IMG/VR virus record: IMGVR_UViG_3300028883_000053
Span: 1-59,403 of that record
Reading direction: 5' to 3' (one strand)
Source of the DNA: a virus
Lineage: Duplodnaviria; Caudoviricetes
Length of the DNA: 59,403 bases
Shown: piece by piece, positions 1 through 39,293 of the stretch
How positions within the stretch are numbered: the stretch's first letter is position 1
How the letters are laid out: each line of letters opens with the position of its first letter
Program-made: the position numbers and the translations under genes
Notes under the pieces: model-generated
Database searches by the model: none
Told to the model about the DNA's origin: nothing
What the model saw: only the letters and a program-made list of their open reading frames with translations

Positions 1-137
1 CCCAATTGCCTGGGACACGTATCCTCTCTATTGACTGGCCGTGGTTGATGTTCACCTGCGCATAGCCCGCATAGGTCCAGGCGCGACCTAGAACCCTACT
101 AACCGAAGACGCTCCCCATGCGCCTCCCCTCGGTGCA
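1..137. repeat. Terminal direct repeat, left copy (circular assembly overlap)
   Basis: 1-137 equals 59267-59403 except C127 vs A59393; the overlap lies inside the integrase ORF. Confidence 0.95.
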
Positions 138-790
138 GGCACGTGCGCAAGACCTGACGCTAGCGCCGTCGCAGACATGCCACCGTACACGTATTCATCA
201 AAGATGCGACGCACGATATTCGCTTCTTCAGGCACGATGACGACCTGACCATCCTTGCCGCCGATCTTGATGTAACCGTACGGCGCTCCCCTTGGCATCT
301 CGCCTCGCTTGACCTTTCCGATTGTACCCATCCGGTTGCGATGACGCAGGCGGATCATCTCGGCCTGGGACATCGCAGACTCTAGCGCCAACATCAGCGT
401 AGCGCCTTCCTGGCGGGATTGCTCGGTTGCGTCGATGCTAGACGGCGGCGCAGATCGGCTATATATAGCGATGCCTGATTGATGGCAGTATGATACGACC
501 TGCATGATCAGCGCAGTCGTTCGACCCAGCCGAGACAGGTCACGGCATACGAGCAGATCAGCGCCACGGTTCTGCATGATTGTTCGTAGTTGTGCGTACG
601 CCTCGATACGGCTGCAGGCATCGTCGAAGCCGATGATTTCGCGCGACTCGCCAGGTACCTCTAGCGATGCGACCTGCACGCCACCGATCTCGTCAATCAG
701 CGCCTTATTTCTGTTCGCTTGGTCTATCGGGGATTCCTTTTCGGTCTGCGGTTTGGACGACACAGCAACCCACGAAATGCACCTGATCAT
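1..790 (-). CDS. int: Large serine recombinase/integrase, N-terminal part; continues across the junction into 59266..58611 (about 481 aa total)
   Basis: Manual translation from ATG 790: MIRCISWVAVSSKPQ...CRDLSRLGR...GAPYGY...IVPEEANIVRRIFDEY (resolvase catalytic and recombinase motifs); AAGGA RBS upstream; in frame with ORF 58611..59321. Confidence 0.9.
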   Translation of the reverse strand, partial: MIRCISWVAVSSKPQTEKESPIDQANRNKALIDEIGGVQVASLEVPGESREIIGFDDACSRIEAYAQLRTIMQNRGADLLVCRDLSRLGRTTALIMQVVSYCHQSGIAIYSRSAPPSSIDATEQSRQEGATLMLALESAMSQAEMIRLRHRNRMGTIGKVKRGEMPRGAPYGYIKIGGKDGQVVIVPEEANIVRRIFDEYVYGGMSATALASGLAHVPAPRGGAWGASSVSRVLGRAWTYAGYAQVNINHGQSIERIRVPGNW

Positions 791-2957: not shown

Positions 2958-3870
2958 CATCGACAAACTGAAGGCGGAGTATCGACTAGAGGACACGGTC
3001 GAGCGCCTGACGGGCCAGCAGATCACCAAGCACAAGATAAGCTGTCCTCTGCACGAGGACAAGACACCATCGATGCACATTTACGATGACGGTCGTTTTC
3101 ACTGCTACGCATGTGGCGCTCACGGCGACGTCTTGGACTTCGTCGGCATTTACCTGTACGGGCGCAATTACAACAGCGATGCGCACTTCAAGGACGTCAT
3201 CGACCACCTCGGCGGCGTCGACATCAAGCCGATCCCGCGCACAGCGCCGTCTACACGCAGACCGAAAAAGCCAGGGCTATCAATCAGCGCCGTCGCAGTC
3301 GACAACTGGAATCTAACGATGCCTGACGACAGGCGAGAATTCTGGCATAGTCGCTGGCTGCGGGACGATGTGATTGATTTCTACAAGCTGGGCTGGGACG
3401 GTCGACGATACACCATACCTCTAGCATATCGGGGCGTCTATTTCGGCGTCAAACGGCGTAAGGCGGACGATGTGGACGACGGCATAGAGGCCAAGTATAT
3501 GATGTCGAAAGGCAGTCGAGCAGGGCTGTTTCCGGCTGATTGCCTGTTCACTGCGCAGCACGTCATCATCTGCGAGGGCGAAATTGACGCCTTGCTGATA
3601 CGACAGGCTGACCTGGACGCAGTGACGACAACGGCGGGCGCTGGGTCATGGAAGCCGCAGTGGGCGAGATTCTTCAGTCATATTCCACGCATCACAATTC
3701 TATACGACAACGACGACGCAGGGCGCGAAGGCGCTCTGAAAGTGCGAAAGAGCCTGCGCAAGGCCGAGATCGCCACATTGCCTGAGGGCGTCAATGATGT
3801 GGGCGACCTGCACGAGATATGGGGCATCGACGATGCCACCGCTTGGCTGCGAACGATTGGAGCAGAATGA
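2947..3870 (+). CDS. DNA primase (CHC2 zinc finger + Toprim)
   Basis: CPLHEDKTPSM..FHCYACGAHGD; ICEGEIDAL; YDNDDAGREGA; DVGD. Confidence 0.9.
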   Translation: MTIDIDKLKAEYRLEDTVERLTGQQITKHKISCPLHEDKTPSMHIYDDGRFHCYACGAHGDVLDFVGIYLYGRNYNSDAHFKDVIDHLGGVDIKPIPRTAPSTRRPKKPGLSISAVAVDNWNLTMPDDRREFWHSRWLRDDVIDFYKLGWDGRRYTIPLAYRGVYFGVKRRKADDVDDGIEAKYMMSKGSRAGLFPADCLFTAQHVIICEGEIDALLIRQADLDAVTTTAGAGSWKPQWARFFSHIPRITILYDNDDAGREGALKVRKSLRKAEIATLPEGVNDVGDLHEIWGIDDATAWLRTIGAE

Positions 3871-4598
3871 TGGGCTTTTCCTGTATACCTAACGACCTAA
3901 TAGACGACCCACAGATCGGCGCATACGAGATCGCAGTCTATGCGATCATAGCACGGCATAGCGACAGCGAGGGCGACAACGCAACGCCAAGCGTCAGCAC
4001 GATTTCGAGCTTGGCGGGTATCGGAGAGACGACCGTGAACAACGCAGTCAATACGCTGTCCAGACTAGGTTACGTCGCCAAGGTGCGACGATTTCTCCCT
4101 AACGGAGGCAACACATCGAACGGCTATAAACTGCCCAAACAGACGCCAGAACCCTACACCGCCACACGGCGCACGGGTCAGCCTACTGAGCACCCCCCCT
4201 ACACCGCCACACGGTCACGATCAATAGAACAACAACACCTTACTAACGTTCCTGCGGAACCCGAGCCTGCACAGACGGTTGACGATCAGCACAGATCATT
4301 TGCTGATACCGTGCAGGCATACGTCGACGAGGCAAATGCTGCAGGCAACAAGAATGCGGTCTGCATGCGGGCATACAAGGAGTTCTACGGTGGGCGAACG
4401 CCACCCGATTTCGGCTATCTCGGTCGGGTCGCCAAGAAGGTGGGCGGTCACGGTCGGCTGATTCGTATGCTGGCGGAGACGTCTATCAAGCCACCTGACG
4501 GCGACGTGCTGGCATACATTCAGGCTGTGAAGAAGGGCAAGGCTGACGAGGAAGAACGCAACACGGGAATGAGCCGAGCGCGTGTCTTGGCTGAGTGA
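3867..4598 (+). CDS. HTH replication initiator (HTH_36-like)
   Basis: PSVSTISSLAGIGETTVNNAVNTLSRLGYV...SNGY; internal direct repeats. Confidence 0.75.
   Translation: MMGFSCIPNDLIDDPQIGAYEIAVYAIIARHSDSEGDNATPSVSTISSLAGIGETTVNNAVNTLSRLGYVAKVRRFLPNGGNTSNGYKLPKQTPEPYTATRRTGQPTEHPPYTATRSRSIEQQHLTNVPAEPEPAQTVDDQHRSFADTVQAYVDEANAAGNKNAVCMRAYKEFYGGRTPPDFGYLGRVAKKVGGHGRLIRMLAETSIKPPDGDVLAYIQAVKKGKADEEERNTGMSRARVLAE
4152..4214 (+). repeat. Iteron-like 18 bp direct repeats in the initiator gene (putative origin)
   Basis: CCCTACACCGCCACACGG at 4152-4169 and 4197-4214. Confidence 0.65.
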
Positions 4599-4623
4599 CC
4601 TACGGGTCAGAAAGGAATGCAGT

Positions 4624-5007
4624 ATGTGGCTGTATACGACAGAGGGATTCTATAGCATCGTGCAGGACCGAAACAACGCATCACGTCTGATGGTGCGAGC
4701 GAGGGACCTGAACGACCTGCGCAATTTTCGACATCGTCTGCGGGACGCCAATCCAGACGACAGGGTAGACATCGTCGAGACGGTCAATGCGGATTACCTG
4801 TATAGGCTATTTGCGCCACGCCAGGACGTCATGCGGGTCGTTGGCGACCTAACCTGCAGCATCGACTACGACAACTACAAGAACGCTGTCAGCATCGTAC
4901 AGGGACACGAGCGGGCTAGCATATACATGCGAGTCTGGTCTGCGATGGTCGACCTACAGAAGCCCTGGCGCGACAGGCTGTTTGGGTGGGAATCGCACCA
5001 AAACTGA
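4624..5007 (+). CDS. Conserved phage hypothetical protein
   Basis: GAAAGGA RBS; MWLYTTEGFYSIV..VRAR..DYLYR..IDYDNYK. Confidence 0.7.
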   Translation: MWLYTTEGFYSIVQDRNNASRLMVRARDLNDLRNFRHRLRDANPDDRVDIVETVNADYLYRLFAPRQDVMRVVGDLTCSIDYDNYKNAVSIVQGHERASIYMRVWSAMVDLQKPWRDRLFGWESHQN

Positions 5008-5015
5008 CGAATCTC

Positions 5016-5069
5016 GAAATTGGGTCTTGACAACGTCATGACGTGGTGATACACTTCAATCAGTGAACG
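5016..5069 (+). promoter_or_regulatory. Repeated cassette promoter (class I)
   Basis: AAATTGGGTC-TTGACA-17-TACACT with extended TG and TGAT-N8-ATCA. Confidence 0.85.
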
Positions 5070-5098
5070 ATAAAACGCCAGACCGAAAGGACGACATC

Positions 5099-5302
5099 AT
5101 GACACGGTCAATCGACTTTAGCGACTTCCCGAACGACACAGCCTTTGCTAGCGACTTAGGCTGGCGACCAGGGCAATTTCCGAAGGTCATCAATGTCGGC
5201 GGTCACGAGTACAAGACCCGATATGTCGACGGCGCTGACGGCGAGGTCTGGTCTGTCAAGTACGCAAGCGGCTCACACTTCTTGACGGTCTACAACGACT
5301 GA
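5099..5302 (+). CDS. Small cassette protein
   Basis: GAAAGG RBS; follows the repeated promoter. Confidence 0.7.
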   Translation: MTRSIDFSDFPNDTAFASDLGWRPGQFPKVINVGGHEYKTRYVDGADGEVWSVKYASGSHFLTVYND

Positions 5303-5377
5303 CATCTGCAGGACACACACACGGGGTCGGCTACCTGTCGACCCCACACACACACTAGCGAAACGAAAGGCTACATC

Positions 5378-5665
5378 ATGACCGAGCAACTAAGCACAAT
5401 GACCGTCGGGGAAATGATCGAGAGGCTGCAGGAATTCGACGAGAACACACCGGTCGTCTTTAGCTACGAATACGGCGACTACTGGCGCAACATATGCGCA
5501 AACACTGCGGGGCGGGACGACGTCGACGAGGGCGAGGTCGAATGGTCAAACTATCACAACTCCTGGAAGCTGTCGAAGGATAGCGACGAATTCGAGGACG
5601 GCGAGGACGCAGAGGACGACGACGAGCGACAAGTTGCTGTCGTAATCGGTCCGAAGTACTGGTAG
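5378..5665 (+). CDS. Small acidic cassette protein
   Basis: Hairpin plus CTAGCGAAACGAAAGG RBS; MTVGEMIERLQEFD. Confidence 0.75.
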   Translation: MTEQLSTMTVGEMIERLQEFDENTPVVFSYEYGDYWRNICANTAGRDDVDEGEVEWSNYHNSWKLSKDSDEFEDGEDAEDDDERQVAVVIGPKYW

Positions 5666-5733
5666 GCGGTATCAACGGGACCTGTCGCCTTGGCAGGTCC
5701 CTACACTATAGCGAAACGAAAGGCTACATCATC

Positions 5734-6027
5734 ATGGCAGGTAATTTTGTAATCGTATCACAGGCGCTAGATACGTATACGGGCGAGGCATCATATGTGA
5801 CGTGGGGCGGTCGTATGCTATGGCTAGGTCCCTTAGAGGGATACCCTGACGGTGTCAATACGAAGCGCTACAAGACACGGGTCGCAGCGGATCAGGCGCT
5901 GCGCAGGATGAAGCGACAGTATCCCGAATTCCCATTTGAACAGAACGCCAAGGTGACGGTCTGGTCTGCGCTTTGGCAGGACAACGACACGCCAGATTGG
6001 TCAGCATATAACGGAGGCAAATCGTGA
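5734..6027 (+). CDS. Small cassette protein
   Basis: GGGACCTG..CAGGTCCC hairpin plus TAGCGAAACGAAAGG RBS. Confidence 0.7.
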   Translation: MAGNFVIVSQALDTYTGEASYVTWGGRMLWLGPLEGYPDGVNTKRYKTRVAADQALRRMKRQYPEFPFEQNAKVTVWSALWQDNDTPDWSAYNGGKS

Positions 6028-6188
6028 CGATCATCGTTTCAGGACATCGAGCGTTCCGTGCAATAGAGGACGGCTCGTATTGGCGGGTCGAGGAATTGCG
6101 AAACGGTTTATGGGTCGCGGTCGGCTTGGCGATCAGCGCAGATGCAGCCGAGCGCCTATGCGACGAGATGCACGAAAGGGGTCTGTGA
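6024..6188 (+). CDS. 54 aa hypothetical protein (not in ORF track)
   Basis: GGAGG RBS, GTG start overlapping the upstream stop, TGATG coupling downstream. Confidence 0.55.
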   Translation: MTIIVSGHRAFRAIEDGSYWRVEELRNGLWVAVGLAISADAAERLCDEMHERGL

Positions 6189-6472
6189 TGGGCAATGCAT
6201 CGGTCAGCAAATTGTACTCGGAATGGTACAGCGAGTGGGGTGGCGGGTCACTGAATATGAGCCTGTACAAATACACATCTGAGGGCGTGATGCCAATATA
6301 CGTCGTCGATTGGACGATAGATGACAGGTACGAGCAGGAGGTAGACAGCGACCAGACAGCCACGGTCGATTGGGCGGAAAGGGACGCTAAGCATATCAGG
6401 GAGTGTATTGCACTATTTGACTCGCTCAAGGAGACGCACGCGCATGACCTGAGGGGCGAGGACGATGGCTAA
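6188..6472 (+). CDS. Hypothetical protein
   Basis: GAAAGGGG RBS; coupled start. Confidence 0.6.
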   Translation: MGNASVSKLYSEWYSEWGGGSLNMSLYKYTSEGVMPIYVVDWTIDDRYEQEVDSDQTATVDWAERDAKHIRECIALFDSLKETHAHDLRGEDDG

Positions 6473-6626
6473 AAATTCCAAGGGCGAGAAGCGGGTCTGT
6501 CCCGAATGCGGACAGACGATGGATGGATGGCGCTGCATCATGCGCCCTCACCCAAAACACGGCTGGTCTTGGCCGATTACGGTCAAGGTCTGCCTTAGAT
6601 GCCACGCAAAGAGGATCAAGAAATGA
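6465..6626 (+). CDS. 53 aa zinc-ribbon protein (not in ORF track)
   Basis: CPEC...CLRC; GAGG RBS; coupled on both sides. Confidence 0.55.
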   Translation: MAKNSKGEKRVCPECGQTMDGWRCIMRPHPKHGWSWPITVKVCLRCHAKRIKK

Positions 6627-7009
6627 ACATGATGGTATCGGCTGACGCAGTGACGAACAAACAGCAGTCTGACTTTATGGCCTGGTGCAGGGACCACGAT
6701 TCGGGCGCAGACTGCACGCCACAGGCATACGGGTACTTAGCTGGCGTGATAGACGGTATAACGCAGCCTGACGCCCACAAGGACGTGTTACAGCTACTGT
6801 TGGGGCATCGCATCGACCATGATCACAGACCTGCGGCACAGCTAGTCGACGGCCTGCTTGATTGGCTTCCCAAGACCAAGGGTCGGGGCATCAAGAAGCA
6901 GCTAAACCCGAGCTATCGACCGGACTATGCTAGCTGCATCGCCAGGCTGCATGAAACCGTTATGCGGGGCAAGGGACAGTTAGGATTCAAAGAGGTACTT
7001 TATGGCTAG
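6623..7009 (+). CDS. Hypothetical protein
   Basis: ATGA overlap with the upstream gene. Confidence 0.6.
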   Translation: MNMMVSADAVTNKQQSDFMAWCRDHDSGADCTPQAYGYLAGVIDGITQPDAHKDVLQLLLGHRIDHDHRPAAQLVDGLLDWLPKTKGRGIKKQLNPSYRPDYASCIARLHETVMRGKGQLGFKEVLYG

Positions 7010-7262
7010 GATACAGCGGGGAATGTTTGTCAGGACAACACGCAACGTACGAGCGCCTTGGCGCATGATTCCGAAAGGGTCACGGGCTCAGATCAGTGTC
7101 AGATACTACTTCCCACAGCCTAACGGCGAAGAGGAACGATTCGTCACGATCCTGTCTTTCACAGACCGCAAGCTGCGACCGCCAAAGGATGAAATGATTC
7201 TGGACGTCGGAGCAGCGGAGGGCGACGAGCTACCGTCCTGGCTGCAGGTCGACAATCGCTAA
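7002..7262 (+). CDS. Hypothetical protein
   Basis: GAGG RBS; coupled. Confidence 0.6.
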   Translation: MARIQRGMFVRTTRNVRAPWRMIPKGSRAQISVRYYFPQPNGEEERFVTILSFTDRKLRPPKDEMILDVGAAEGDELPSWLQVDNR

Positions 7263-7315
7263 GATTGGGCCTTGACATCGTCCCTACGATATGATACATT
7301 CGAATCAGTGAACGG
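7261..7315 (+). promoter_or_regulatory. Repeated cassette promoter (class I) upstream of dnaB
   Basis: AGATTGGGCC-TTGACA-17-TACATT, TGAT-N8-ATCA, GTGAACG. Confidence 0.8.
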
Positions 7316-7433
7316 CAAACCGCCAGAACGAAAGGACGCAGACGACTTCGACCTTCAACTTTAGGGTCATATCAACCATACGCTGAGGGGCGGGCGACCG
7401 TCCCTCTACTTTTTCTAGCGACGAAAGGATCAC

Positions 7434-8771
7434 ATGGCTACAGCAAACACAGACGTCGTCACAGCGGCGGAGCATCTAGTAGGCAACCTTTGGTTTCAGA
7501 TGGACGCAGTGAGCGTCATCGCATCACGTCTGCAGCCCGATACAATGCGCAACGTCGTGGGCGGTCCACCTGCGATGGCGTACTCGGAAATGTGCAGGCT
7601 GCTTCGGTCCGAGCGGGAACAGCTATCGGCGGGCGCATTGGAGGCATCGCTCAAGTCGATGAGGTTTGATTGGTCCTGGCTAGACGACCTGCAATCACGG
7701 GTCGCTTCCGAGAGCATGCCTGTACTTATGCGATACGCTGCGACGATCAACAACGCTGCAGACCTGCGGAAAATTCGCACGTATTGCGCACGAGCAGACC
7801 AAGACGCACAAAGACAGGGCGCATACGCAGAGGACGTCGCAGCAGACCTGTTGCGGGCGCTCACAGACCAAGCGGAAGCAGCCACGGAGGTCGAACACAT
7901 ATCAGCGCCGATCAGCCGACTGCGAGATCAGTTCCAGGCTATGAAAGACGGCACGTACGATTGGGGACAGAAGACCGGATTCCGAGCAATCGATACGCTG
8001 ATCAGGATGGTCGACGGTGACCTGATTGTCCTTGGCGGTCGACCGTCGCAGGGCAAGTCGTCGCTAGCGAGACAGATAGCGCTACATCGTGCGAAGGAGA
8101 TACTGCGCAACGGCGAGAAGGGTCAGGTCGTCATCTTCACGGCTGACGATACTGCGGCGAAAACCGTCGAGGCTATGGCGGGCATCGAGGCACAGGTAAA
8201 TCTTGCTAACGTGCGCACAGGCAAGGCTACGAGCGAGGATTGGGCGAAGCTAGAGGATGCGATGCAGACCATCGAGCTACTACCGATCCAGGTAGACGAT
8301 ACGACACAACCGACAGTAGAACAAATGTACTATCGTGCAGCGATGCTAAACGCCCAAGCGCCTGTCAAGCTAGCGATCATGGACTATCTCGAATTGGTCA
8401 GCGTTCCCAAGGTATCGTCCGAGCTTGAGCGGGTCACACAGGCTGCACGTGGCATCAAGAGCATCGGGTCGACCCTTGGCTTCCCCTACCTGCTTCTGTC
8501 GCAGCTTCGCAAAGATGTGGACGACAGACGGGACAAGTGGCCCACGGCTGCAGACACGAAATACGCAGGCGAGGCGGAGGCTGACGTTATGATGCTGGCT
8601 ATGCGACCTGAACACTACATCAATCGTGGCGACACGATAGAGTGCAACGACGAAGATCGTCAGGGCGTTGCGCTGATCAATGTCGCTAAAAACAAGACAG
8701 GTCAGGTCGGCGTAGCACGGCTATCTTTTCGAGCAGAGGTCAGCAGTTTTGGTGACCTGTATCGCGTATAG
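7434..8771 (+). CDS. dnaB: Replicative DNA helicase
   Basis: GGRPSQGKS Walker A; IMDYLEL; LLSQLRK; VAKNKTGQVG. Confidence 0.92.
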   Translation: MATANTDVVTAAEHLVGNLWFQMDAVSVIASRLQPDTMRNVVGGPPAMAYSEMCRLLRSEREQLSAGALEASLKSMRFDWSWLDDLQSRVASESMPVLMRYAATINNAADLRKIRTYCARADQDAQRQGAYAEDVAADLLRALTDQAEAATEVEHISAPISRLRDQFQAMKDGTYDWGQKTGFRAIDTLIRMVDGDLIVLGGRPSQGKSSLARQIALHRAKEILRNGEKGQVVIFTADDTAAKTVEAMAGIEAQVNLANVRTGKATSEDWAKLEDAMQTIELLPIQVDDTTQPTVEQMYYRAAMLNAQAPVKLAIMDYLELVSVPKVSSELERVTQAARGIKSIGSTLGFPYLLLSQLRKDVDDRRDKWPTAADTKYAGEAEADVMMLAMRPEHYINRGDTIECNDEDRQGVALINVAKNKTGQVGVARLSFRAEVSSFGDLYRV

Positions 8772-8775
8772 GGTA

Positions 8776-8804
8776 TTGACGCAGACACTACAAAATGATA
8801 CACT
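8776..8804 (+). promoter_or_regulatory. Repeated promoter (class II)
   Basis: GGGTA-TTGACG-17-TACACT with extended TG. Confidence 0.75.
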
Positions 8805-8822
8805 GACAGACAGGAGCGAGCG

Positions 8823-8996
8823 ATGATTCCAGTAGGAACTAAATTCACGATGCGGGGCGACGAGTCTGGATACGTATACGTCGTAATCAAGACGACGCCA
8901 GATCGCTTCTATAGCGTGCAGGACGGTGTGGACCGTCCAGGATTTTGGGCTAACAATCGTTTCTTCGAGACGACATGCGAGCAAATCAATTCATAG
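8823..8996 (+). CDS. 57 aa hypothetical protein (not in ORF track)
   Basis: Promoter plus AGGAG RBS; MIPVGTKFTMRGDESGYVYVVIK. Confidence 0.6.
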   Translation: MIPVGTKFTMRGDESGYVYVVIKTTPDRFYSVQDGVDRPGFWANNRFFETTCEQINS

Positions 8997-9253
8997 GCAC
9001 AGCGATCAACGTTCTATCATCTGTGGCGGGTGATGTGGGCGATATCGAAAGGCGTGCAGCGTCAGCGGGTATCGACGTAAGTCGTATCAACTGGCAGGGA
9101 AGTGCGAAAATCGTGTGGTACAGAGTGTTGCAGGAGGCGGGGAAGATTCCTGACAGCCTGGAAATACTGCTCGCAGACGTCTATAACGACTATCCCACGG
9201 ACCAGATCGCCTATATACGTTCAATGTTACTAGTAGGGAGGGATGATACCTGA
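8975..9253 (+). CDS. Stand-alone EAD1-like (effector-associated, Death-like) domain protein
   Basis: DIERRAASAGIDVSRINWQGSAKIVWYRVLQEAGK..DYP; paralog of 10682..11206. Confidence 0.65.
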   Translation: MRANQFIGTAINVLSSVAGDVGDIERRAASAGIDVSRINWQGSAKIVWYRVLQEAGKIPDSLEILLADVYNDYPTDQIAYIRSMLLVGRDDT

Positions 9254-9388
9254 GTGCGCAAGGTCACGGGGCGGCGAAACATCTAGTTGGTAATGCGAAT
9301 AGATCAGTGGACGTCGCCCTATGACCAACGGTAATTATGCGGCAACGCTATATATAAATCGACCCATCTAATAGAGACAGGAGATTAC

Positions 9389-9913
9389 ATGCAGGCTGAG
9401 ATCATGGACGCAATCAAGACGGCGCATGCGGTGCTGTGGACGAAACGCAGGGAGATCGAGGATCGATGGCCCACACCGGATCAGGGCGACAGCTTCCTGT
9501 TTGCGGTCGCGGAGCTAGGAGAGGTCGTCGACGCGCATATGCGCACAAAGGGTCAGTACGTGCGCAACAACGAGCATCTGCGCGCAGTGCAGGACGAGAT
9601 GGCAGATGTCGCCATGATGCTACTTACGGCGCTGGGCGACGATCCTGAATGGCCTGGGATGGACGACATGCCAGATACATTCGAGTCGTTTGGTATCGGC
9701 GAGATTGTGTCGACGATGAGCGAGGTCATGGCTTGGTATACGTACGCAGATGACGTCGACGTCGACAGCATAATGTCGTATCAGATCGTGTGGGTCTTGT
9801 CGGGTCTATACGTCTACTTTGAGGCACGGGGCGAGACGTTGGCGTCTGCGGTCAGCCAACGATTAGCGCGTATCGAGGCCAAGGTGACGCAGGAGGAGAT
9901 GGCAATAGCATGA
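9389..9913 (+). CDS. MazG-like nucleotide pyrophosphohydrolase
   Basis: AELGEVVD...QDEMADV acidic motifs. Confidence 0.65.
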   Translation: MQAEIMDAIKTAHAVLWTKRREIEDRWPTPDQGDSFLFAVAELGEVVDAHMRTKGQYVRNNEHLRAVQDEMADVAMMLLTALGDDPEWPGMDDMPDTFESFGIGEIVSTMSEVMAWYTYADDVDVDSIMSYQIVWVLSGLYVYFEARGETLASAVSQRLARIEAKVTQEEMAIA

Positions 9914-10149
9914 TACGCTTCCTGAGGAATGTGTGGCTGCAGCACAGCTTCAATCGTGGCGGGCGCGAATGGCGCAAATGGTATAAGGCAGTCGACGTCT
10001 ACGAGGGCGACACTAGCACTGCGTGGCACATTCCACCTTACCTGCAGCGCTACCGAGACTCTCTATATGAGGACATGACGCGCCGTGGCTTCGTTTGGGA
10101 TGGCGTCGCTTGGAATAGACGCACGTTCAGAATATCGTTATCACGCTAG
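9910..10149 (+). CDS. Hypothetical protein
   Basis: ATGA overlap; terminator follows. Confidence 0.55.
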   Translation: MIRFLRNVWLQHSFNRGGREWRKWYKAVDVYEGDTSTAWHIPPYLQRYRDSLYEDMTRRGFVWDGVAWNRRTFRISLSR

Positions 10150-10170
10150 CACAGCACGTGCAGGATGTAG

Positions 10171-10203
10171 CGCCTCGTCGATATCGGCGGGGCGTTTTTC
10201 TTT
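10171..10203 (+). terminator. Intrinsic terminator
   Basis: CGCCTCGTCG-ATAT-CGGCGGGGCG plus T-run. Confidence 0.75.
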
Positions 10204-10206
10204 CTC

Positions 10207-10257
10207 ATTCGGTCTTGACAACGTCCCTACGAGGTGATACAGTTGAATCATCGAACG
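10207..10257 (+). promoter_or_regulatory. Repeated cassette promoter (class I)
   Basis: GGTC-TTGACA-17-TACAGT, TGAT-N8-ATCA. Confidence 0.8.
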
Positions 10258-10289
10258 ACAAGCACACCAGCGACCGAAAGGACCGCAAG

Positions 10290-10532
10290 ATGAAACTCAG
10301 CAAGAACGCAGTATCGGCGATGCGACAGGCTAAAGCCCAATTTGTGAACGCCGAGCTAGAACTGTCGACCGGCGACGTGCAGAAGTCATACAGCACAAAC
10401 CTGCACGCCTGGGATATCCTGCAGGAGGGCGAGCAGACAGCCTTCAACTACGGCGAGGCGCTACCCAAGGGATACGCTGACGTATACACCATCATCGAGG
10501 CGCAGAAGGAACGCATCGGCGACAAGATGTAG
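10290..10532 (+). CDS. Monocistronic cassette (moron-like) protein
   Basis: Own promoter, AGCGACCGAAAGG RBS and own terminator. Confidence 0.7.
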   Translation: MKLSKNAVSAMRQAKAQFVNAELELSTGDVQKSYSTNLHAWDILQEGEQTAFNYGEALPKGYADVYTIIEAQKERIGDKM

Positions 10533-10550
10533 ACCGAGCACAGACCGCAC

Positions 10551-10580
10551 AGACCCTGGCACAGACGCCAGGGTCTTTTC
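10551..10580 (+). terminator. Intrinsic terminator
   Basis: AGACCCTGGC-ACAGAC-GCCAGGGTCT-TTTC. Confidence 0.8.
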
Positions 10581-10616
10581 TATTTCCGCTATATATCATG
10601 ATTCTACTGTATCAAT

Positions 10617-10645
10617 TTGACATGACATTCTGCCCATGTTATGAT
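10617..10645 (+). promoter_or_regulatory. sigma70 promoter outside the repeated family
   Basis: TTGACA-17-TATGAT with extended TG. Confidence 0.7.
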
Positions 10646-10681
10646 GTCAATAATGGCGAAAGCCGGGAGGCACGATCACGC

Positions 10682-11206
10682 ATGGGATGGTGGACTGAGG
10701 CGACGTCTGACCTACAGTCGGTCTTGGTTGGGCTATACCCGAGCCAGGCTGACATCGAACGGGTGGCTTTCTCGTCTGGTATCGACACGTCGCAAATCAT
10801 ATGGAACGGATCAGCGGCACAAAATTGGTTTCGTACGTTAAGGGCGGCGGGGAAGCAAGGAAGATTGCTCTCGGTCGTCCGTTTTGTATGCGGTGAATAT
10901 CCGAACAACGCAAAACTGGCGACGCTCGAATATTACATACGGCACAGCGAAAGGGACGCACGGTTGAAGGCGGGCGATACGGTCGACGCAGACGATACAG
11001 TGGGCGAGATGCCTATGTTCGCAACACGCGACGACAGGTGGCAGTCGTTTATGGAGGCTATCCTGCGGGTCGAGGAAAATCAGCGGGCGATATCTGACAG
11101 GCTGCTTCGGCTAGAACTGAATGCGATGACGCCAATGATGTATGGCGTTTCTACCGTCGTCATATCGACCCTTGTAACGCTCGTCCTGCACATGGTCATC
11201 TGGTGA
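10682..11206 (+). CDS. EAD1-like domain + coiled coil + C-terminal TM helix
   Basis: GGGAGG RBS; W..LQSVLVGLYPSQADIERVAFSSGID...NWFRTLRAAGKQGRL...EYPNNAKL; hydrophobic C-terminus. Confidence 0.7.
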   Translation: MGWWTEATSDLQSVLVGLYPSQADIERVAFSSGIDTSQIIWNGSAAQNWFRTLRAAGKQGRLLSVVRFVCGEYPNNAKLATLEYYIRHSERDARLKAGDTVDADDTVGEMPMFATRDDRWQSFMEAILRVEENQRAISDRLLRLELNAMTPMMYGVSTVVISTLVTLVLHMVIW

Positions 11207-11220
11207 CGACAGGAGGATTT

Positions 11221-12066
11221 ATGGCTGCGGAGCCGACGGTGAAGTTCGACACGATCAGGCTGAACTTTCGAGATGTCGGTCCTGGATGGGAAACCTGGAT
11301 TTTATCAGCGCCAGACGTTCATTGGGATAACCCGCACACAGATCGGAATCTGTTTCGGAAACACATGGATCAGGTCGTCAAGCGGGACGGTATAGCGATA
11401 TTCCCAGGTGATTTCTTTTGTGCGATGCAGGGCAAGTGGGACCCTCGCAAGACCAAGGAGGACCTGCGCCCAGAACATCAAAACGGCGACTATTTGGATT
11501 CACTTGTTCGCACTGCGACCGACTGGTTCGAGCCGTATCGTGACCACATCGGCTTTATCAGTATGGGCAATCATGAAGTCGGCATCCTGAACCGTCACGA
11601 GACGAACCTGACCGCACGTCTGTGCAGCGCCCTGGACGTGCCACAGGGTGGTTACAGCGGCTTCCTAGACATACTGACCGAGAGTGCTGCGGGTGGTAAC
11701 AGACGTCGACACAGGGCGTTTTGGCATCACGGGGATGGTGTAGGCGGTGAGGTCACCAAAGGAGCGCTACGAACAGACCGCTGGGGAAGCTGGGTAGAGG
11801 GTGTCGATATCCTGATCGGCGGTCACATTCACCAGTCGTGGGTCATCTGGACGTCGGCATTGACGGCGCTAGCATCAGGGAGACAGGAGTTGGTCGACAG
11901 GGCGCACATATGCTCGTCGACGTACAAGCAAGAATACGAGATGCAGGGTACGTGGCACGTCAGGAAAGGACGCAGACCACGACCCATCGGCGGCACTTGG
12001 ATTCACTTCTATTACGACAGGTCGGCACGCGGTCGGGTGAAATTCAATGCGTTCCGAGCAATCTAG
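11221..12066 (+). CDS. Calcineurin-like metallophosphoesterase
   Basis: DVH, GD, GNHE, HHG and GHIH motifs; AGGAGG RBS. Confidence 0.85.
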   Translation: MAAEPTVKFDTIRLNFRDVGPGWETWILSAPDVHWDNPHTDRNLFRKHMDQVVKRDGIAIFPGDFFCAMQGKWDPRKTKEDLRPEHQNGDYLDSLVRTATDWFEPYRDHIGFISMGNHEVGILNRHETNLTARLCSALDVPQGGYSGFLDILTESAAGGNRRRHRAFWHHGDGVGGEVTKGALRTDRWGSWVEGVDILIGGHIHQSWVIWTSALTALASGRQELVDRAHICSSTYKQEYEMQGTWHVRKGRRPRPIGGTWIHFYYDRSARGRVKFNAFRAI

Positions 12067-12564: not shown

Positions 12565-12753
12565 GTGAACAAAATCTATCAGGCGATCCAGCAAATCTAC
12601 ACAGACTACGGTCTGCTGCAAATGCTGATCGTGGCGGCGCTGATCGTCGCACTATGCGTTATCGTGCTGGCTATTTTCCAGTACGCTTTTGGCTTCACGG
12701 TGCAGGAAATGTTCGAGCAGTTCAAGCTGTACTTTCCGCCAGCGGGCGCGTAA
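12565..12753 (+). CDS. Small membrane protein (possible holin-like)
   Basis: GGAGG RBS; long hydrophobic stretch. Confidence 0.55.
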   Translation: MNKIYQAIQQIYTDYGLLQMLIVAALIVALCVIVLAIFQYAFGFTVQEMFEQFKLYFPPAGA

Positions 12754-12803
12754 TTTTTTTGATCATCATGTAGTGACATGACACCTACGAAAGGAGGTAG
12801 TAA

Positions 12804-14012
12804 ATGAGTAAAGTCTATCGACTGATCGCTATCTTGTCTGTGGTACTGTTTGTGTTTGTTGTGGCCATTCCAGCATATGCGCAGGACAGCGATGATTACA
12901 GCCTGTACATGCCATCGATCAGGGCTGCGACGGGCGATCCTGTACTCGATGAACTCGATATCACACTTGAGGTAGCGGCTACATCTGAGCAGCTATCAAC
13001 ACCGTTTGGCGTAGGCATGCCTTGGCAGGCAAAGGAATACAGCAGCAGCCCATCGGACTACTATCGGCGCACGTTCAATGTACTGAAGACGACAGCGACG
13101 AGCGGGACCTATAACGGGACGGTATACAAGCCGTGGTGGTATGACTGGCAACCGGACGGCGCATCTTGGACGGGTGCGTTGTGGTGGAAACTGCAATACG
13201 TACCAATGCTGTGGGGCTGCTCGACGGATTGGGGACCATCTGGCTGTACCAACGGCGACTGCGACAGCGACGGCTACGGCGACTATTACAAGGAATTCAA
13301 GGACCTGCTTTACGAGCAATATCTCGTTGATCAGGAAGAAAAGGTGGTCCTGCTCTGCAATGAGCCGACCCAACAGGCGGGCATCGATTACGAAGACTTC
13401 TCTGGCATGCTGGCCGATCTGTACGAAGACGTATACGCGCCCGCATATCAGAATTACGGTCTGGAACCCAAGTGGATCGGTCCTAATATCAGCGTAGCAG
13501 CGGCGATTAATGATAGCACATTCATTGCGGGCGTTATCGATGAGATTGACTGGTTAGGCGGAGGGTGCTTGTGGTACGGCACGCTCCCGTGGTGCCTCGA
13601 CACTTATTACGCTCCGCTAAGTCTGTATTCGCCTCTTCACTGGGGTATCCACATCTATGATACGACGACGACTGGCATGGAGAATCAGTTGGATTGGTGG
13701 GAGGGATTCCTGGCCGATCAAATTGACGAGTCAACTTTCCTGGACGCACCAGAAACAGCGTGGATCACGGAGTTTGCGTCGCTATCCTACGACTGGAACG
13801 TTCAGAAGGCGACTGTCTCTTGGGGATACGATGCGATATCAGACACGAGCCACGATGTCGATAAGGCGTTCTGGTTCGGGGCGGACACGCACGAGGTCCC
13901 TGGCTGGTCGATTGACCCATACAACGATTTGGTGCAACAGAACGAGACGACACTGACGGGGCGAGGTACTCGGTTCGTATCTGAATTCTTGGATTGGGCC
14001 AATACACATTGA
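12804..14012 (+). CDS. Secreted clan GH-A glycoside hydrolase (GH128/Glyco_hydro_cc-like)
   Basis: Signal peptide (..PAYA-QD); WWYDW, YVPMLWG, NEP, HIY, WITEF, FWF. Confidence 0.75.
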   Translation: MSKVYRLIAILSVVLFVFVVAIPAYAQDSDDYSLYMPSIRAATGDPVLDELDITLEVAATSEQLSTPFGVGMPWQAKEYSSSPSDYYRRTFNVLKTTATSGTYNGTVYKPWWYDWQPDGASWTGALWWKLQYVPMLWGCSTDWGPSGCTNGDCDSDGYGDYYKEFKDLLYEQYLVDQEEKVVLLCNEPTQQAGIDYEDFSGMLADLYEDVYAPAYQNYGLEPKWIGPNISVAAAINDSTFIAGVIDEIDWLGGGCLWYGTLPWCLDTYYAPLSLYSPLHWGIHIYDTTTTGMENQLDWWEGFLADQIDESTFLDAPETAWITEFASLSYDWNVQKATVSWGYDAISDTSHDVDKAFWFGADTHEVPGWSIDPYNDLVQQNETTLTGRGTRFVSEFLDWANTH

Positions 14013-25705: not shown

Positions 25706-26053
25706 TTAATCCTTTCTCCATCCGCACTCACCTACACAGACATCGGCCAGCGGGAATATCGTCCTAGTGTCGTTCTGCGTCACGATCTCGATCACGTGCA
25801 TTCTAGGAACTTGAACCGAACCACCGATCCAAATGTGTTGCTCTGCGTACATATCCTGCAGGCGCAGCGGTTGATACGCCAGATTTGTGTTGTAGACGAA
25901 GCACAGGTTTACTTCCTGCACGTCGTTTCGTGCCTTGACCTGAAAGTCATACAATTCGATGTCGGCTATGCGGGTCATTTCGACCTGCACGGGCGAGGGC
26001 GACTGCATGAACGGAAGCCACAGTGCAATGGTCAGTAGTAGTGCGTTAATCAT
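25706..26053 (-). CDS. Small exported/membrane-anchored protein
   Basis: LLLTIALWLPFMQ N-terminus; GGAGG RBS. Confidence 0.6.
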   Translation of the reverse strand: MINALLLTIALWLPFMQSPSPVQVEMTRIADIELYDFQVKARNDVQEVNLCFVYNTNLAYQPLRLQDMYAEQHIWIGGSVQVPRMHVIEIVTQNDTRTIFPLADVCVGECGWRKD

Positions 26054-27470
26054 CCTCCAAATCCTTTCTCCAATCCCATCCTTGGATCGCTCCCTCGGGC
26101 CACCCAGGGCCAAATACTACAATCGCAGTCGCATGGCCGGGCCTTTTCTTGTTCTCTACGCCCTCGGGCGGGTCGAACGCAACCCGTCCACGCAACAGAT
26201 AGATCGAACCCTTCATCGCTAGTTCGTGCCACCATGCGGTATCGGTGGACGCTCGCAGCACGCAGACGGTCGTCACACCGTTCGCTCTTTCGTCCAGCGC
26301 CTTCGTCAGCCACACTTCAGTCTGACCGTATGGTGGATTACAGAACGCTAATCGACTTTTGACACCGTATTCCCACCAGTCAACCTTCAAGCCGTTGTTT
26401 GCGGGCGTGATATAGTTTTCGGCTTTCGCATTGTCGTCAGTTGCACAGACGTCCAGGTCAAATGCGCCGAACTTCGACTCTAACGCTTCCATCAAATCGT
26501 CTGGCGTCGACCAGTCCTGATACCCGTTCGTCTTGACGTGCGACATAACGTTGGTTTCGACCTGTTCGGGTACAGTGTATCCGTTGCGTATCGCAGCGAT
26601 CAGATCGTCCTGTACTCCGATCTTGTTCTTGATCGACCATCGATCATAATCCTCCCAACGATACAGGCATGAGCAGTGTATCTTCTGATTGCCTGCGACC
26701 TGATTCCAGCGGTCGACCTCAGCGTACATCTCCTGCACCCAACCGTCGTTGACGTCTGCCCATGCCTCGTCGCCCTGATCAGTCTCGGTGATGTAGACGG
26801 GAAGCGACGTCATGCCTGCGGGTATAGCGTGCATGAAGTCCTGATAGCAGCGGAAATGCCAGCGCCAGCCCTCAGGATGAACAGCGTCAGACGCCACAAA
26901 CGACGGGTCAGCACCGTGAGTGTAGGCATGAAGGGCGATACCGTCCAGATTGCCAGGGCCTACTACTTTGAGGATTGTACCGAAGTATGAGATCGGGTCG
27001 ATGCCTGTCTGCATGTTCCACGGAGCTACAGCAGCAACGATCACCTCGTCATTTTCGTGGCCGTCTAGCGACCTGATTGCAGTGCGGCACAGCTTGAACG
27101 CCCGTGCGTAGTCTCCGGCAGCAATCCAGCCATCTTCGGGCCACTCGTTTTCGTGGTTTGGTTCGTTCCCTATAATCCAGCGTGTGACGCTTTGCGTGCG
27201 TGCGACGTATTGCGCACAGCTAGATGCGAAACGCTCGTATTCATGTATCATCGGGAGCGTACCCGTCGACCCGTACCCGTTATTGATGCGCACGATCACG
27301 TCAATTTGGGCGTCCGCCAGTTCGGAGTAGTCGGTTCGAGCGTCCCGTCCACCGTCCAGCCCGACTGCGACCGTATCGACGACCCAGCCGGACGTGCGAT
27401 CACCGGTCACATTTTCGTGCAACAAATGCGCCCCGCCAGCATCGTGTATGCCGTAGATTGATTTTCTCAT
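26046..27470 (-). CDS. Clan GH-A glycoside hydrolase fused to a phage Dam-type N6-adenine methyltransferase
   Basis: WIIGNEPN, LHAYTHG, PVYITE; then WSTP..FDLDVCA..FCNPPY..STDTAWWH..RGRVAF; no stop between domains. Confidence 0.8.
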   Translation of the reverse strand: MRKSIYGIHDAGGAHLLHENVTGDRTSGWVVDTVAVGLDGGRDARTDYSELADAQIDVIVRINNGYGSTGTLPMIHEYERFASSCAQYVARTQSVTRWIIGNEPNHENEWPEDGWIAAGDYARAFKLCRTAIRSLDGHENDEVIVAAVAPWNMQTGIDPISYFGTILKVVGPGNLDGIALHAYTHGADPSFVASDAVHPEGWRWHFRCYQDFMHAIPAGMTSLPVYITETDQGDEAWADVNDGWVQEMYAEVDRWNQVAGNQKIHCSCLYRWEDYDRWSIKNKIGVQDDLIAAIRNGYTVPEQVETNVMSHVKTNGYQDWSTPDDLMEALESKFGAFDLDVCATDDNAKAENYITPANNGLKVDWWEYGVKSRLAFCNPPYGQTEVWLTKALDERANGVTTVCVLRASTDTAWWHELAMKGSIYLLRGRVAFDPPEGVENKKRPGHATAIVVFGPGWPEGAIQGWDWRKDLEDD

Positions 27471-27673
27471 TCGCCAGTCTCCTTGAACGCCCGTTCGCAG
27501 TCCTTCAGCGTAATGCCTAGTTCGCCGAAGAAATCGCGCAACGACATGCGTTCGCCTTCGATACCGACGCACCCGTCATACCAACCGCCTATTGCTATGT
27601 CGCGGCTTGTTTTGTAGAAGGTCACGTCGATTCCTGAGTAATCAAAGTCGCCAATGTAATATGTCTTAGGCAT
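27467..27673 (-). CDS. Hypothetical protein
   Basis: Coupled operon member. Confidence 0.55.
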   Translation of the reverse strand: MPKTYYIGDFDYSGIDVTFYKTSRDIAIGGWYDGCVGIEGERMSLRDFFGELGITLKDCERAFKETGE

Positions 27674-28100
27674 CGTCAGCCTCCGGTCGCATACGCAGCG
27701 TCGTTCGCCAGTCGATACCCATCGGCAGACGCAGCCCGCTTGTACGTGGAAAAGACATATCCACTATTGGCAAATTCCCCCAGCCCTGTTCGGTCGGTTC
27801 GTCCAGGTAATCTCCTGGAATCAGCCAAATACCGAGTCCGGTTGGCGTAAACGCATGGGCCGTGGCGACGTCCGGCGCTTTGGACCAGTCCGGTTCGGGT
27901 ATCCTCGACAGGTCCCTGATCTGGTCTATCAGCGGGACGAGTATCAGCGCAAAGCGGATCAGCCAGCCTGCGTACCCTACCAACTGAGGCGCATTTTGGG
28001 CGTTGATAAATTCCCGAATCCCGCTTCTGGTTCGCCTGTCCTGCGGCGTTCCATCGGCTAGGTAATCCATCATCTGTTTGATGTCCTGGTCTGTCGTCAC
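27666..28100 (-). CDS. Hypothetical protein
   Basis: Coupled operon member; AGGAG RBS. Confidence 0.55.
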   Translation of the reverse strand: MTTDQDIKQMMDYLADGTPQDRRTRSGIREFINAQNAPQLVGYAGWLIRFALILVPLIDQIRDLSRIPEPDWSKAPDVATAHAFTPTGLGIWLIPGDYLDEPTEQGWGNLPIVDMSFPRTSGLRLPMGIDWRTTLRMRPEADDA

Positions 28101-28720
28101 GGCATCTCCTTTCCCGCTACGATCTGCTCGTACGCATGCTTGAATAGCCCTGCGTACAATTCGACCTGACCTGTTCCGTTGTACAGCGCAGCGACCCTGG
28201 TCCAGTTTGCATTCTGCAGCGCCGTCACCGCACCAACCCGATACAGGTAAGCGAACACGGCTGCGACCTGATTTAGCTCGCCTGTCTCGCTGTCACTGAA
28301 CGACTCCATCATTTCCTGCACGGAAGCGTAGCCTATACCGCCATAGTTGAAGCCCATCACCTGACCTGCACCCATGCCGATGGATCGCATCGAAGCGTTC
28401 CGGTCGACGTCTGCGAAGTGCTGGAACGCATGCCATTCTTCCTCCTGCGACGCATGCAAGGCACGCCAATCTTCATCTTCGCTAGGTCGCCATTCTTGGT
28501 ACTTCCACGGCTCGTCCTTGTCATACACGAGCGTCTTTTCGTACAGATCGATGTTGGGCGTTAGCGAGTCGAAAACATGCGCCTCGAATCGTATGATCAA
28601 TCTACCCGCAGGGCTGAAGCCAGACCCGCCAGACTCGACCCTAAGCAGCGCCCTGATATAATCTGGGTCGATGCCCAATATGCGGGACTGTGCCTCGATA
28701 AACCATCGTTTCTCGTTCAT
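28097..28720 (-). CDS. N-acetylmuramidase (DUF3380-type) endolysin
   Basis: VESGGSGF..IRFEAHVF..SIGMGAGQVMGFNY..W..VA.LYNG. Confidence 0.88.
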   Translation of the reverse strand: MNEKRWFIEAQSRILGIDPDYIRALLRVESGGSGFSPAGRLIIRFEAHVFDSLTPNIDLYEKTLVYDKDEPWKYQEWRPSEDEDWRALHASQEEEWHAFQHFADVDRNASMRSIGMGAGQVMGFNYGGIGYASVQEMMESFSDSETGELNQVAAVFAYLYRVGAVTALQNANWTRVAALYNGTGQVELYAGLFKHAYEQIVAGKEMP

Positions 28721-39168: not shown

Positions 39169-39293
39169 ATGTCGCCCTGGTCTATCAGAATCGGGGCTTA
39201 AACGTTGGCAACGTCATAAGCAGCAAGGACTATCCAGCCAGCGTACTAGTCGACTGGCTAGCGAAGGGTCAGGTGCAGAAATTTGAGACTTGA
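39108..39293 (+). CDS. Small head-module protein
   Basis: AAAGGA RBS; position. Confidence 0.5.
   Translation: MADGNAKPKRRTAKPERYRVNVALVYQNRGLNVGNVISSKDYPASVLVDWLAKGQVQKFET

Follow-up and report, generated by a model that had tools for sequence, protein, structure and literature searches.

Why should a temperate phage carry two copies of a bacterial immune adaptor domain, and no recognizable partner for either of them? The question is posed by the IMG/VR virus record IMGVR_UViG_3300028883_000053, a phage genome which was analyzed over its whole stretch of 59,403 nucleotides (referred to here as the window), and which encodes two small proteins of the effector-associated domain 1 (EAD1) family. 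The first of these open reading frames (ORFs), ORF A, lies at positions 8975..9253 of the + strand and encodes 92 amino acids with an EAD1 domain and nothing else, while ORF B, at 10682..11206 of the same strand, encodes 174 amino acids in which the domain is followed by a putative coiled coil and a predicted membrane anchor. Kaur et al. predicted a set of adaptor domains that would wire hubs to killing enzymes in the immunity of multicellular bacteria, and of these EAD1 is the most widespread. The coupling of hub and effector through homotypic binding is itself a prediction, and it is accompanied by an architectural rule, in which one copy of an EAD is found on a core component and the others on effector or signaling domains of the same genome (Kaur et al. 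2020). To judge from their sequences, A and B probably interfere with the immune hubs of the host, or plug into them. The answer favored here, to which a probability of roughly 0.4 is attached, is that they are phage copies of the bacterial adaptor that would act as decoys against EAD1-based immunity in the host.

The relationship between the two proteins is direct. A and the N-terminal portion of B align with 27 of 65 residues identical (42%; E 6e-12), and the motif from which the initial annotation had deduced their paralogy (DIER, GID, W.GSA, AGK, YP) is evident in this alignment. The family that had been named there also proves to be the right one, given that both proteins exceed the curated gathering cut-off (24.2 bits) of the EAD1 model in Pfam, PF19955. 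The match of B reaches 38.3 bits (E 1.9e-9, residues 9-82), and that of A is marginal, at 24.8 bits (E 3.1e-5, residues 12-76). When the record was searched in all six frames, EAD1 was recovered at exactly two sites, A and B, with scores of 23.9 bits for A (24.2 with its frame neighbors) and 38.5 bits for B. By sequence, then, A and B are members of the EAD1 family, B matching 17 of its 24 conserved columns, and A, a divergent member which has V17-A18-G19 in place of the L-Y-P motif, matching 13. The conserved W, R, and Y-P positions of the family are kept, and A and B deviate together from its consensus in three residues (E in place of R, W in place of F, V in place of A). The NCBIfam, PADLOC, and PHROGs collections returned no match for either protein, and neither sequence contains a recognizable enzymatic domain.

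The fold was to be checked, according to the initial annotation, with AlphaFold and Foldseek, of which the first provided confident models, and the second, run against the PDB and BFVD, no match at E up to 0.001. The AlphaFold model of A, built from an alignment of 49 sequences, is a five-helix bundle within the 92 residues (pLDDT 93.5, pTM 0.84), and residues 1-96 of B form the same five-helix bundle (block pLDDT 82-98, in a model with an overall pLDDT of 88.9). The top PDB rows of Foldseek, none of them at E ≤0.001, include bacterial death-like or CARD structures (8ss1, 9cs7) and animal CARDs, with TM-scores of 0.55-0.6. An independent search of 48,161 chains with VIA-align gave the CARD structure 9frr_A as the best match of both A (Z 7.9, rmsd 2.8, 80 residues) and residues 1-96 of B (Z 8.2, rmsd 2.7, 82 residues). 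Among the 50 listed entries for A, 46 are CARD, DD, DED, or PYD structures (two others being unclear, and two not of this type), among them MC159, a DED-only inhibitor of viral origin (Z 7.5), and bacterial death-like or CARD structures. Given that Z values below 8 are common among small helical bundles, a Death-like fold of the modeled A and B is likely, rather than proven, and this call agrees with the view of the EADs as functional counterparts of the Death-like adaptors (Kaur et al. 2020).

The two proteins differ in what accompanies the domain. A is domain-only, as originally described, with EAD1 alone in its 92 residues. In B, the EAD1 domain, of Death-like fold, occupies residues 1-96 (10682..10969, + strand), and is followed by an acidic linker, at residues 97-115 (10970..11026), which has no secondary structure in the AlphaFold model (pLDDT 55-61). 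A single modeled helix then spans residues 116-173. Its first part, residues 116-153 (11027..11140), is amphipathic, with a heptad-like 3-4 spacing of hydrophobic residues recognized by eye (W120, F123, I127, V130, I137, L141, and L144), and it returns solely coiled-coil-type structural matches in VIA-align (Z about 6), which is consistent with a putative coiled coil. The last part, residues 154-174 and the stop codon (11141..11206), is hydrophobic, with a Kyte-Doolittle mean of 2.12 over 19 residues, and forms the putative C-terminal transmembrane (TM) helix. As this segment lies at the very end of the protein, B is predicted to be tail-anchored, with its EAD1 domain in the cytoplasm. The coiled coil and the C-terminal TM helix noted initially are thus borne out by the model and by the hydrophobicity scan. 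The proposal that the two proteins are without effectors holds insofar as neither has a recognizable enzymatic domain, and is doubtful for B, whose membrane tail may be the working part.

The identity of this tail was pursued further. EACC1 (PF19953), a single-TM module that is sometimes fused to EAD1 (Kaur et al. 2020), was rejected as the source, given that B returns EAD1 only in Pfam at E up to 10, and that none of 11 proteins of the same layout (B and 10 aligned relatives) matches EACC1 at E up to 5. In the window as a whole, PF19953 has no match at E up to 1, a range in which the HMMER filters drop most of the matches above about 0.1. The two-gene system of EACC1 does not fit either, as the 3' neighbor of B is metallophosphoesterase-like, and not a caspase or a cyclase. 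A role of B as a holin or lysis regulator was also rejected, considering that the muramidase gene (28097..28720) is on the opposite strand, 17 kb away, and that B has one helix only, at its terminus.

Two predicted transcriptional signals precede B. A terminator-like hairpin of 10 pairs followed by a T run (10551..10576, + strand) ends the preceding small cassette, and 37 bases upstream of the start of B, at 10617..10645 of the + strand, there is a promoter-like site that scores 11/12, in which 17 bases separate TTGACA from a TG-extended TATGAT. These promoter and terminator calls are consensus matches only, and no proof of function, with four promoter-like sites found where 3.1 would be expected by shuffling. 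The promoter of its own that had been ascribed to B is supported by the near-consensus site. B is not a single-gene cassette, as its stop codon runs into the GTG with which the next gene starts, at 11203. This overlap makes B, as predicted, the first gene of a longer transcription unit rather than a closed cassette. The next gene of the unit, at 11203..12066 on the + strand, encodes a 287-residue protein resembling calcineurin-like metallophosphoesterases or SbcD, which matches PHROG 7339 ("DNA repair exonuclease") at E 2.3e-8, and the Pfam Metallophos family weakly (E 0.083, below the cut-off).

The relatives of B were recovered by an exhaustive HMMER search of 1.84 billion representative proteins, which produced 210 matches at E up to 0.001, and three at E up to 1e-30. 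These three are a truncated copy of B itself, a 783-residue protein with six EAD1 repeats, and a metagenomic homologue of 171 residues, P0003, which is 70% identical to B, covers 99% of it, and keeps its whole layout. The comparison with P0003 is informative in several respects. It opens with the same eight residues as B, which supports a start of B at 10682 and not at the upstream ATG at 10598. Its tail segment is conserved, and the linker is poorly conserved. A contig of low depth (3.7, against approximately 28) from sequencing run X1, which spans 10684..10887, is approximately 85% identical to the EAD1 region of B, and points to a diverged relative of B that coexists with this phage in that run. 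It differs from B at 30 bases, and the 26 listed substitutions comprise 15 at third, nine at first, and two at second codon positions, a third-position bias which indicates that the B sequence is under coding constraint. There is no RNA run among the listed runs that hold this DNA.

All 56 of the relatives scanned with Pfam, from the 150 listed matches of B, contain EAD1. Their architectures include tandem EAD1 arrays, and EAD1 combined with trypsin, TIR, CHAT, TPR, or TCAD9 domains, or with other EADs, in addition to many short proteins. For A as well as for B, the highest-scoring relatives are tandem EAD1-only proteins, and one of the tandem arrays is named as coming from a metagenome-assembled genome (MAG) of the Chloroflexota. 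A hydrophobic C-terminus is present in 11 of the 148 other relatives that were examined, two of which have two such segments, and nine of the 148, all from metagenomic contigs, have the layout of B, that is, EAD1, linker, helix, and a single C-terminal TM segment. Many more of the relatives continue after EAD1 with a TM helix and then a longer tail. From their sequences, the proteins that combine EAD1 with a coiled coil and a tail anchor appear to constitute a small architectural class that has not been described before.

At comparable lengths, close relatives are scarce. A search of 5.8 billion proteins recovered none for A except itself, and B has one such relative in addition to its truncated copy. 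The best outside matches of A have 41-48% identity over 52-76 residues, which is no closer than B. No match was found for A or B with tblastn in 50,697 GenBank phage records, nor for the region with blastn in the GenBank phages. Scans of IMG/VR with A, B, P0076, P0015, P0018, and alignment A4, and of the metagenomes with alignments A4 and A5, found no relatives. In the ESM Atlas, a structure search recovered a cluster of 89-residue EAD1-only proteins with 52 members, most commonly from Chloroflexota, and a feature search gave no usable match.

The genome in which these genes lie is that of a phage, with genes for the large terminase, portal, a Mu-F-like protein, capsid, and tail, as well as a primase, a replication initiator, and DnaB (Pfam and PHROG scans). 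The same scans identify a ParB-like protein and methylases, and the window also encodes an annealing protein of the Erf/Rad52 type, SSB, RusA, and the muramidase mentioned above. No tRNA gene is found in the window. By its gene content the phage is temperate, encoding a serine recombinase and a cI-like helix-turn-helix repressor. Bases 1..126 of the window are repeated at 59267..59392, the final 11 bases (59393..59403) not matching this terminal repeat, and the frame of the serine recombinase continues over the circular junction (2..790 and 58611..59321, both on the - strand), the left-end part containing the Resolvase and Recombinase domains, and the right-end part Zn_ribbon_recom. The repeated ends and the recombinase that reads across the join make it very likely that the record is a circular assembly of the whole genome, of approximately 59.3 kb, which is at odds with its classification in IMG/VR as linear and 71% complete.

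The region in which A and B lie is an accessory one, with the replication genes on one side and the block of ParB, methylase, and terminase genes on the other, and a Pfam scan of the 84 other ORFs in the window found no NTPase hub, vWA, MoxR, protease, trypsin, caspase, or TIR domain. In bacteria, as described by Kaur et al., a genome has one EAD1 copy attached to a hub (VMAP, iSTAND, GAP1, or STAND) and further copies attached to effectors. Here, the phage that carries both copies lacks a hub as well as any EAD-linked enzyme, and its genome taken alone departs from the architectural rule. The rule could hold across the phage and its host taken together. In the absence of a hub or an EAD-linked enzyme in the phage, the only EAD1 partners available to A and B are proteins of the host, or each other.

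The pointers to the host come from the structural genes. The runs that hold this DNA are labeled as marine sediment metagenomes, and a run from a second study contains fragments of the same phage segment with 0-1 differences. The terminase has its best species-genome matches in two MAGs, one of the Candidatus Promineifilaceae (52%), which the NCBI taxonomy places in the Chloroflexota, and one of the Saprospiraceae (54%). Only two of the 120 listed homologues of the capsid are taxon-named, both being MAGs, of the Anaerolineae (63%) and of Promineifilum (51%). Taken together, the taxon-named relatives of the capsid and the terminase are a moderate pointer to a filamentous member of the Chloroflexota. 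The loci with related terminases have only a few genes in common with the window, and no synteny, and neither the terminase nor the capsid has a match in five EAD1-rich genomes. Counting matches above the Pfam cut-off, EAD1 is present in 30 of the 121 genomes of the order to which the Promineifilaceae MAG belongs, with 17 copies in each of two genomes.

An example of what the target system could look like is provided by L040, a locus (3799..10926, - strand) from an EAD1-rich genome of the candidate host class. Its genes, all on one strand, encode P0171, an EAD1-trypsin protein, a protein of the endonuclease/exonuclease/phosphatase family (Exo_endo_phos), a tyrosine integrase, which is inserted among the genes of the EAD1 locus, and an EAD1-NB-ARC-TPR STAND NTPase. 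P0171, which adjoins the EAD1-trypsin gene, combines EAD1 with a coiled coil, lacks both an enzyme and a TM segment, and is 31% identical to B over 106 residues; A has no significant pairwise match with it. The presence of P0171 within a locus of EAD1-STAND and EAD1-trypsin genes indicates, at the level of sequence, that enzyme-less EAD1 proteins are native parts of the bacterial EAD1 systems, rather than viral inventions.

The decoy reading is the best single explanation because the phage has no partner for its two adaptor-only proteins, because the candidate host order is rich in EAD1, and because a phage CARD-only protein is known to weaken a CARD-dependent defense, as described in a preprint (Wein et al. 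2023). Its starting points are the family, predicted fold, and layout of A and B, the coding constraint on B, and the frequency of EAD1 in that order; what we infer is the binding, its target, the timing of expression, and the effect on the defense. EAD1, a small Death-fold domain, is predicted to join hubs with STAND, vWA-MoxR, or GTPase cores to killing enzymes through like-with-like binding. During infection, A and B would bind the EAD1 domains of the host, and this binding would block or misdirect the recruitment of effectors such as the EAD1-trypsin proteases. A would be a soluble cap, and B, as a coiled-coil dimer or oligomer kept at the inner face of the membrane by its tail anchor, would provide a multivalent sink and draw EAD1 proteins off the hub. 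The initial annotation had arrived at soluble and membrane-tethered decoys of this kind, an interpretation that is partly supported as a whole.

A number of observations weigh against decoys. EAD1 is patchily distributed, with matches in 8 of 251 genomes in a wider sample of the class of the Promineifilaceae MAG, 2 of 201 genomes in the order of the Saprospiraceae MAG, and none of the three MAGs with related terminases, one of which has a match at 22.4 bits. There is also no close mimicry, given that B, as a query, matches 2 of the 121 genomes of the candidate order, at 29-31% identity (and, as a single query, 1 of 301 genomes across the phylum), and that its best relative of any origin besides P0003 is 46% identical. 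The Chloroflexota are a candidate host. Enzyme-less EAD1 proteins are native to bacteria, where they also form clusters of their own, which means that the lack of an enzyme is not in itself the signature of a viral decoy. The layout of B, in addition, recurs beyond this phage, in metagenomic relatives, and its recurrence in nine other proteins raises the prospect that the membrane tail may be a working part, either as an anchor or as a membrane effector. Finally, as this phage is temperate, the position of the near-consensus promoter of B after a terminator is in keeping with the "moron" genes that are expressed from prophages. Such genes more often serve the lysogen than counter-defense.

These last points lead to the main rival of the decoy reading, in which B is an addition by the prophage to the immunity of its host. 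Here, B would be expressed in the lysogen from its own promoter and would join the EAD1 hub of the host, to which it would add a further membrane effector or anchor, and once the hub fires, upon superinfection, for example, the EAD1-driven clustering of the coiled-coil and tail-anchor helices would damage or mark the membrane, with A as a soluble regulator or antidote of B. The recombinase and repressor genes of the phage are in line with this, as are the near-consensus promoter that follows the terminator upstream of B, the nine further metagenomic proteins with the same succession of EAD1, coiled coil, and C-terminal TM helix, and the more numerous relatives in which a longer tail follows the TM helix. 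Bacterial systems offer a precedent in L040, which unites EAD1-NB-ARC-TPR, EAD1-trypsin, and EAD1 coiled-coil proteins, and in the occasional fusion of EAD1 to the single-TM EACC1 (Kaur et al. 2020). Expression of B in the lysogen is, however, an assumption, and a lone tail-anchor helix with nothing after it is a weak candidate for a pore. None of the 11 proteins of this layout matches EACC1, and no short bacterial EAD1 ORF fetched from the genomes ends in a TM helix. Moreover, the longer unit that B opens continues with genes resembling ordinary phage accessory genes. An addition to host immunity is, on balance, unlikely.

It is improbable, in turn, that A and B form a self-contained pair, in which A would bind the EAD1 domain of B in a membrane process of the phage itself (such as timing or localization), with no EAD1 partner in the host. 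The three departures from the consensus common to A and B would be expected of such a pair, and EADs that are encoded near each other tend to be closest relatives (Kaur et al. 2020). In a tree of 49 rows, holding A, B, and P0003 together beats the free search by 26 log units in likelihood, and the grouping is not rejected (p-AU 0.79), whereas A and B are not neighbors in a free EAD1 tree of 208 rows, which is poorly resolved. The 42% identity between A and B is no higher than that of either protein to outside EAD1s (41-48% for A, and 46% for B), and the two genes are in separate predicted transcription units, 1.4 kb apart. It is more improbable still that they are passengers, that is, captured fragments of host EAD1 genes with no role, as might be suggested by the scarcity of close relatives (none for A, and one for B apart from the truncated copy of itself) and the lack of matches in the 50,697 GenBank phage records and in the IMG/VR scans, considering that A and B are intact ORFs with confidently predicted folds, that the whole layout of B is kept at 70% identity in P0003, that substitutions in B are biased toward the third codon position, and that a near-consensus promoter precedes it.

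If A and B are decoys, the closest precedents are the Death-fold proteins with which viruses are known to attack signaling assemblies. A and B are themselves small, all-helical, and non-enzymatic, as is the EAD1 described by Kaur, Burroughs, Iyer, and Aravind (eLife 2020, 2021). The phage analog invoked in the initial annotation does exist, in the form of the CARD-only protein (pCARD) of Acinetobacter phage 133, which, according to the preprint of Wein et al. 2023 (PMC10312443), weakens the gasdermin system of Lysobacter. A resembles it in being a phage-encoded Death-fold domain with nothing attached, and the idea of jamming the homotypic adaptor step of a bacterial cell-death defense would be the same, by analogy. 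The differences are that pCARD is CARD-like and has been tested against a gasdermin system, while A and B are assigned to EAD1 by sequence and are putative inhibitors, and that B, with its coiled coil and membrane anchor, goes beyond what is described for pCARD.

The DED-only, pyrin-only, and CARD-only inhibitors of the animal viruses are likewise domain-only Death-fold proteins, which compete in homotypic assemblies. One of them, the vFLIP MC159, is among the best structural matches of A (Z 7.5) and B (6.7), a level that is common for small helical bundles, although these inhibitors belong to a different superkingdom and have no sequence relationship with A or B. The animal CARD adaptor MAVS, a host signaling protein, has a C-terminal tail anchor. 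B would be analogous to it in its arrangement of N-terminal Death-fold domain, linker, and single C-terminal membrane helix, facing the cytoplasm; no homology is claimed, MAVS is not viral, and B has a coiled coil in addition. In the boldest reading, a phage of filamentous Chloroflexota would deploy Death-fold mimics in two tiers against the EAD1-based immune network of multicellular bacteria, with A as a soluble cap and B as a MAVS-like, tail-anchored sink, multimerized by its coiled coil, that would bring EAD1 effectors of the host (trypsin-like proteases, for example) to the membrane, although this joint claim is doubtful.

Within bacteria, a counterpart of B is P0171, which has no membrane helix and is found in an operon with its partners, whereas B is tail-anchored and borne by a phage. 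EAD1 itself is published and curated in Pfam, and viral inhibitors that consist of a Death-fold domain only are known; what the window adds is that a single phage has two EAD1 copies, and that one of them is tail-anchored and has a putative coiled coil. A literature search, which excluded the supplements of the Kaur papers (architecture lists), found no published description of a phage-encoded EAD1.

Further small ORFs surround the two genes. Upstream of A, on the + strand, a promoter-like site (TTGACG, 17 bases, TACACT; 9/12 in the consensus scan) at 8776..8804 precedes an ORF of 57 amino acids (8823..8996, + strand) with no Pfam or PADLOC match, which leads into A. The 3' end of this ORF overlaps the start of A by 22 bases, an arrangement that may represent translational coupling. 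Between A and B, an ORF of 174 amino acids (9389..9913) has no match in Pfam, PHROG, or PADLOC. By eye, it contains acidic E-x-x-E/D helices, which we take to resemble those of the MazG-type pyrophosphohydrolases. Just upstream of B, a compact cassette of the "moron" type (10169..10576) consists of a terminator-like hairpin (10169..10196), a promoter-like site (10215..10243; 10/12), an ORF of 80 amino acids with no family match (10290..10532), and the second terminator-like hairpin (10551..10576), which precedes the promoter-like site of B. Further low-depth variants in run X1 cover 9833..9956 and 10214..10378. Beyond the unit of B, and in the same direction (12565..14012), there follow a hydrophobic ORF of 62 amino acids and one of 402 amino acids with an N-terminus resembling a signal peptide, neither of which has a family match in Pfam.

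Some other genes of the window are of interest in their own right. The major capsid gene (35855..37819) encodes 654 amino acids, in which the capsid domain is confined to residues 355-637, and in many capsid relatives a prohead protease domain (PF04586) is fused ahead of the capsid domain, which suggests that the gene is probably a fusion of protease or scaffold and capsid. In the structural module, the capsid gene and the head-tail connector have two glycosyltransferase-like genes (38365..39834) between them. The tail module includes an ORF of 2008 amino acids (48001..54027) whose sole match is to PHROG 21962 ("tail protein"), at E 2.3e-5, over approximately 30 residues. On the - strand, at 26046..27572, a protein of 508 amino acids has a Dam methylase domain at residues 344-488 only, preceded by a weak DUF5722-like stretch, the N-terminal 320 residues being without explanation.

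The presence of two enzyme-less EAD1 copies in a phage provides a natural handle on the homotypic coupling of EAD1, which is itself predicted. If A or B binds and blocks an EAD1 system of the host, this would mean that the coupling is real, and that it is attacked by phages, and the single tested case of a CARD-only protein would be extended to a second, much larger family of adaptors. The membrane-anchored form, if it is a decoy, would act by relocation, and not by mere capping, a mechanism of counter-defense that has not yet been described. If B serves the lysogen instead, it would represent a prophage that extends the immune network of its host by means of a common adaptor. Should the two-tier arrangement of soluble cap and membrane sink be true, the metagenomic class of proteins that combine EAD1, a coiled coil, and a tail anchor would constitute undescribed membrane-tethered regulators of the Death-fold signaling of bacteria.

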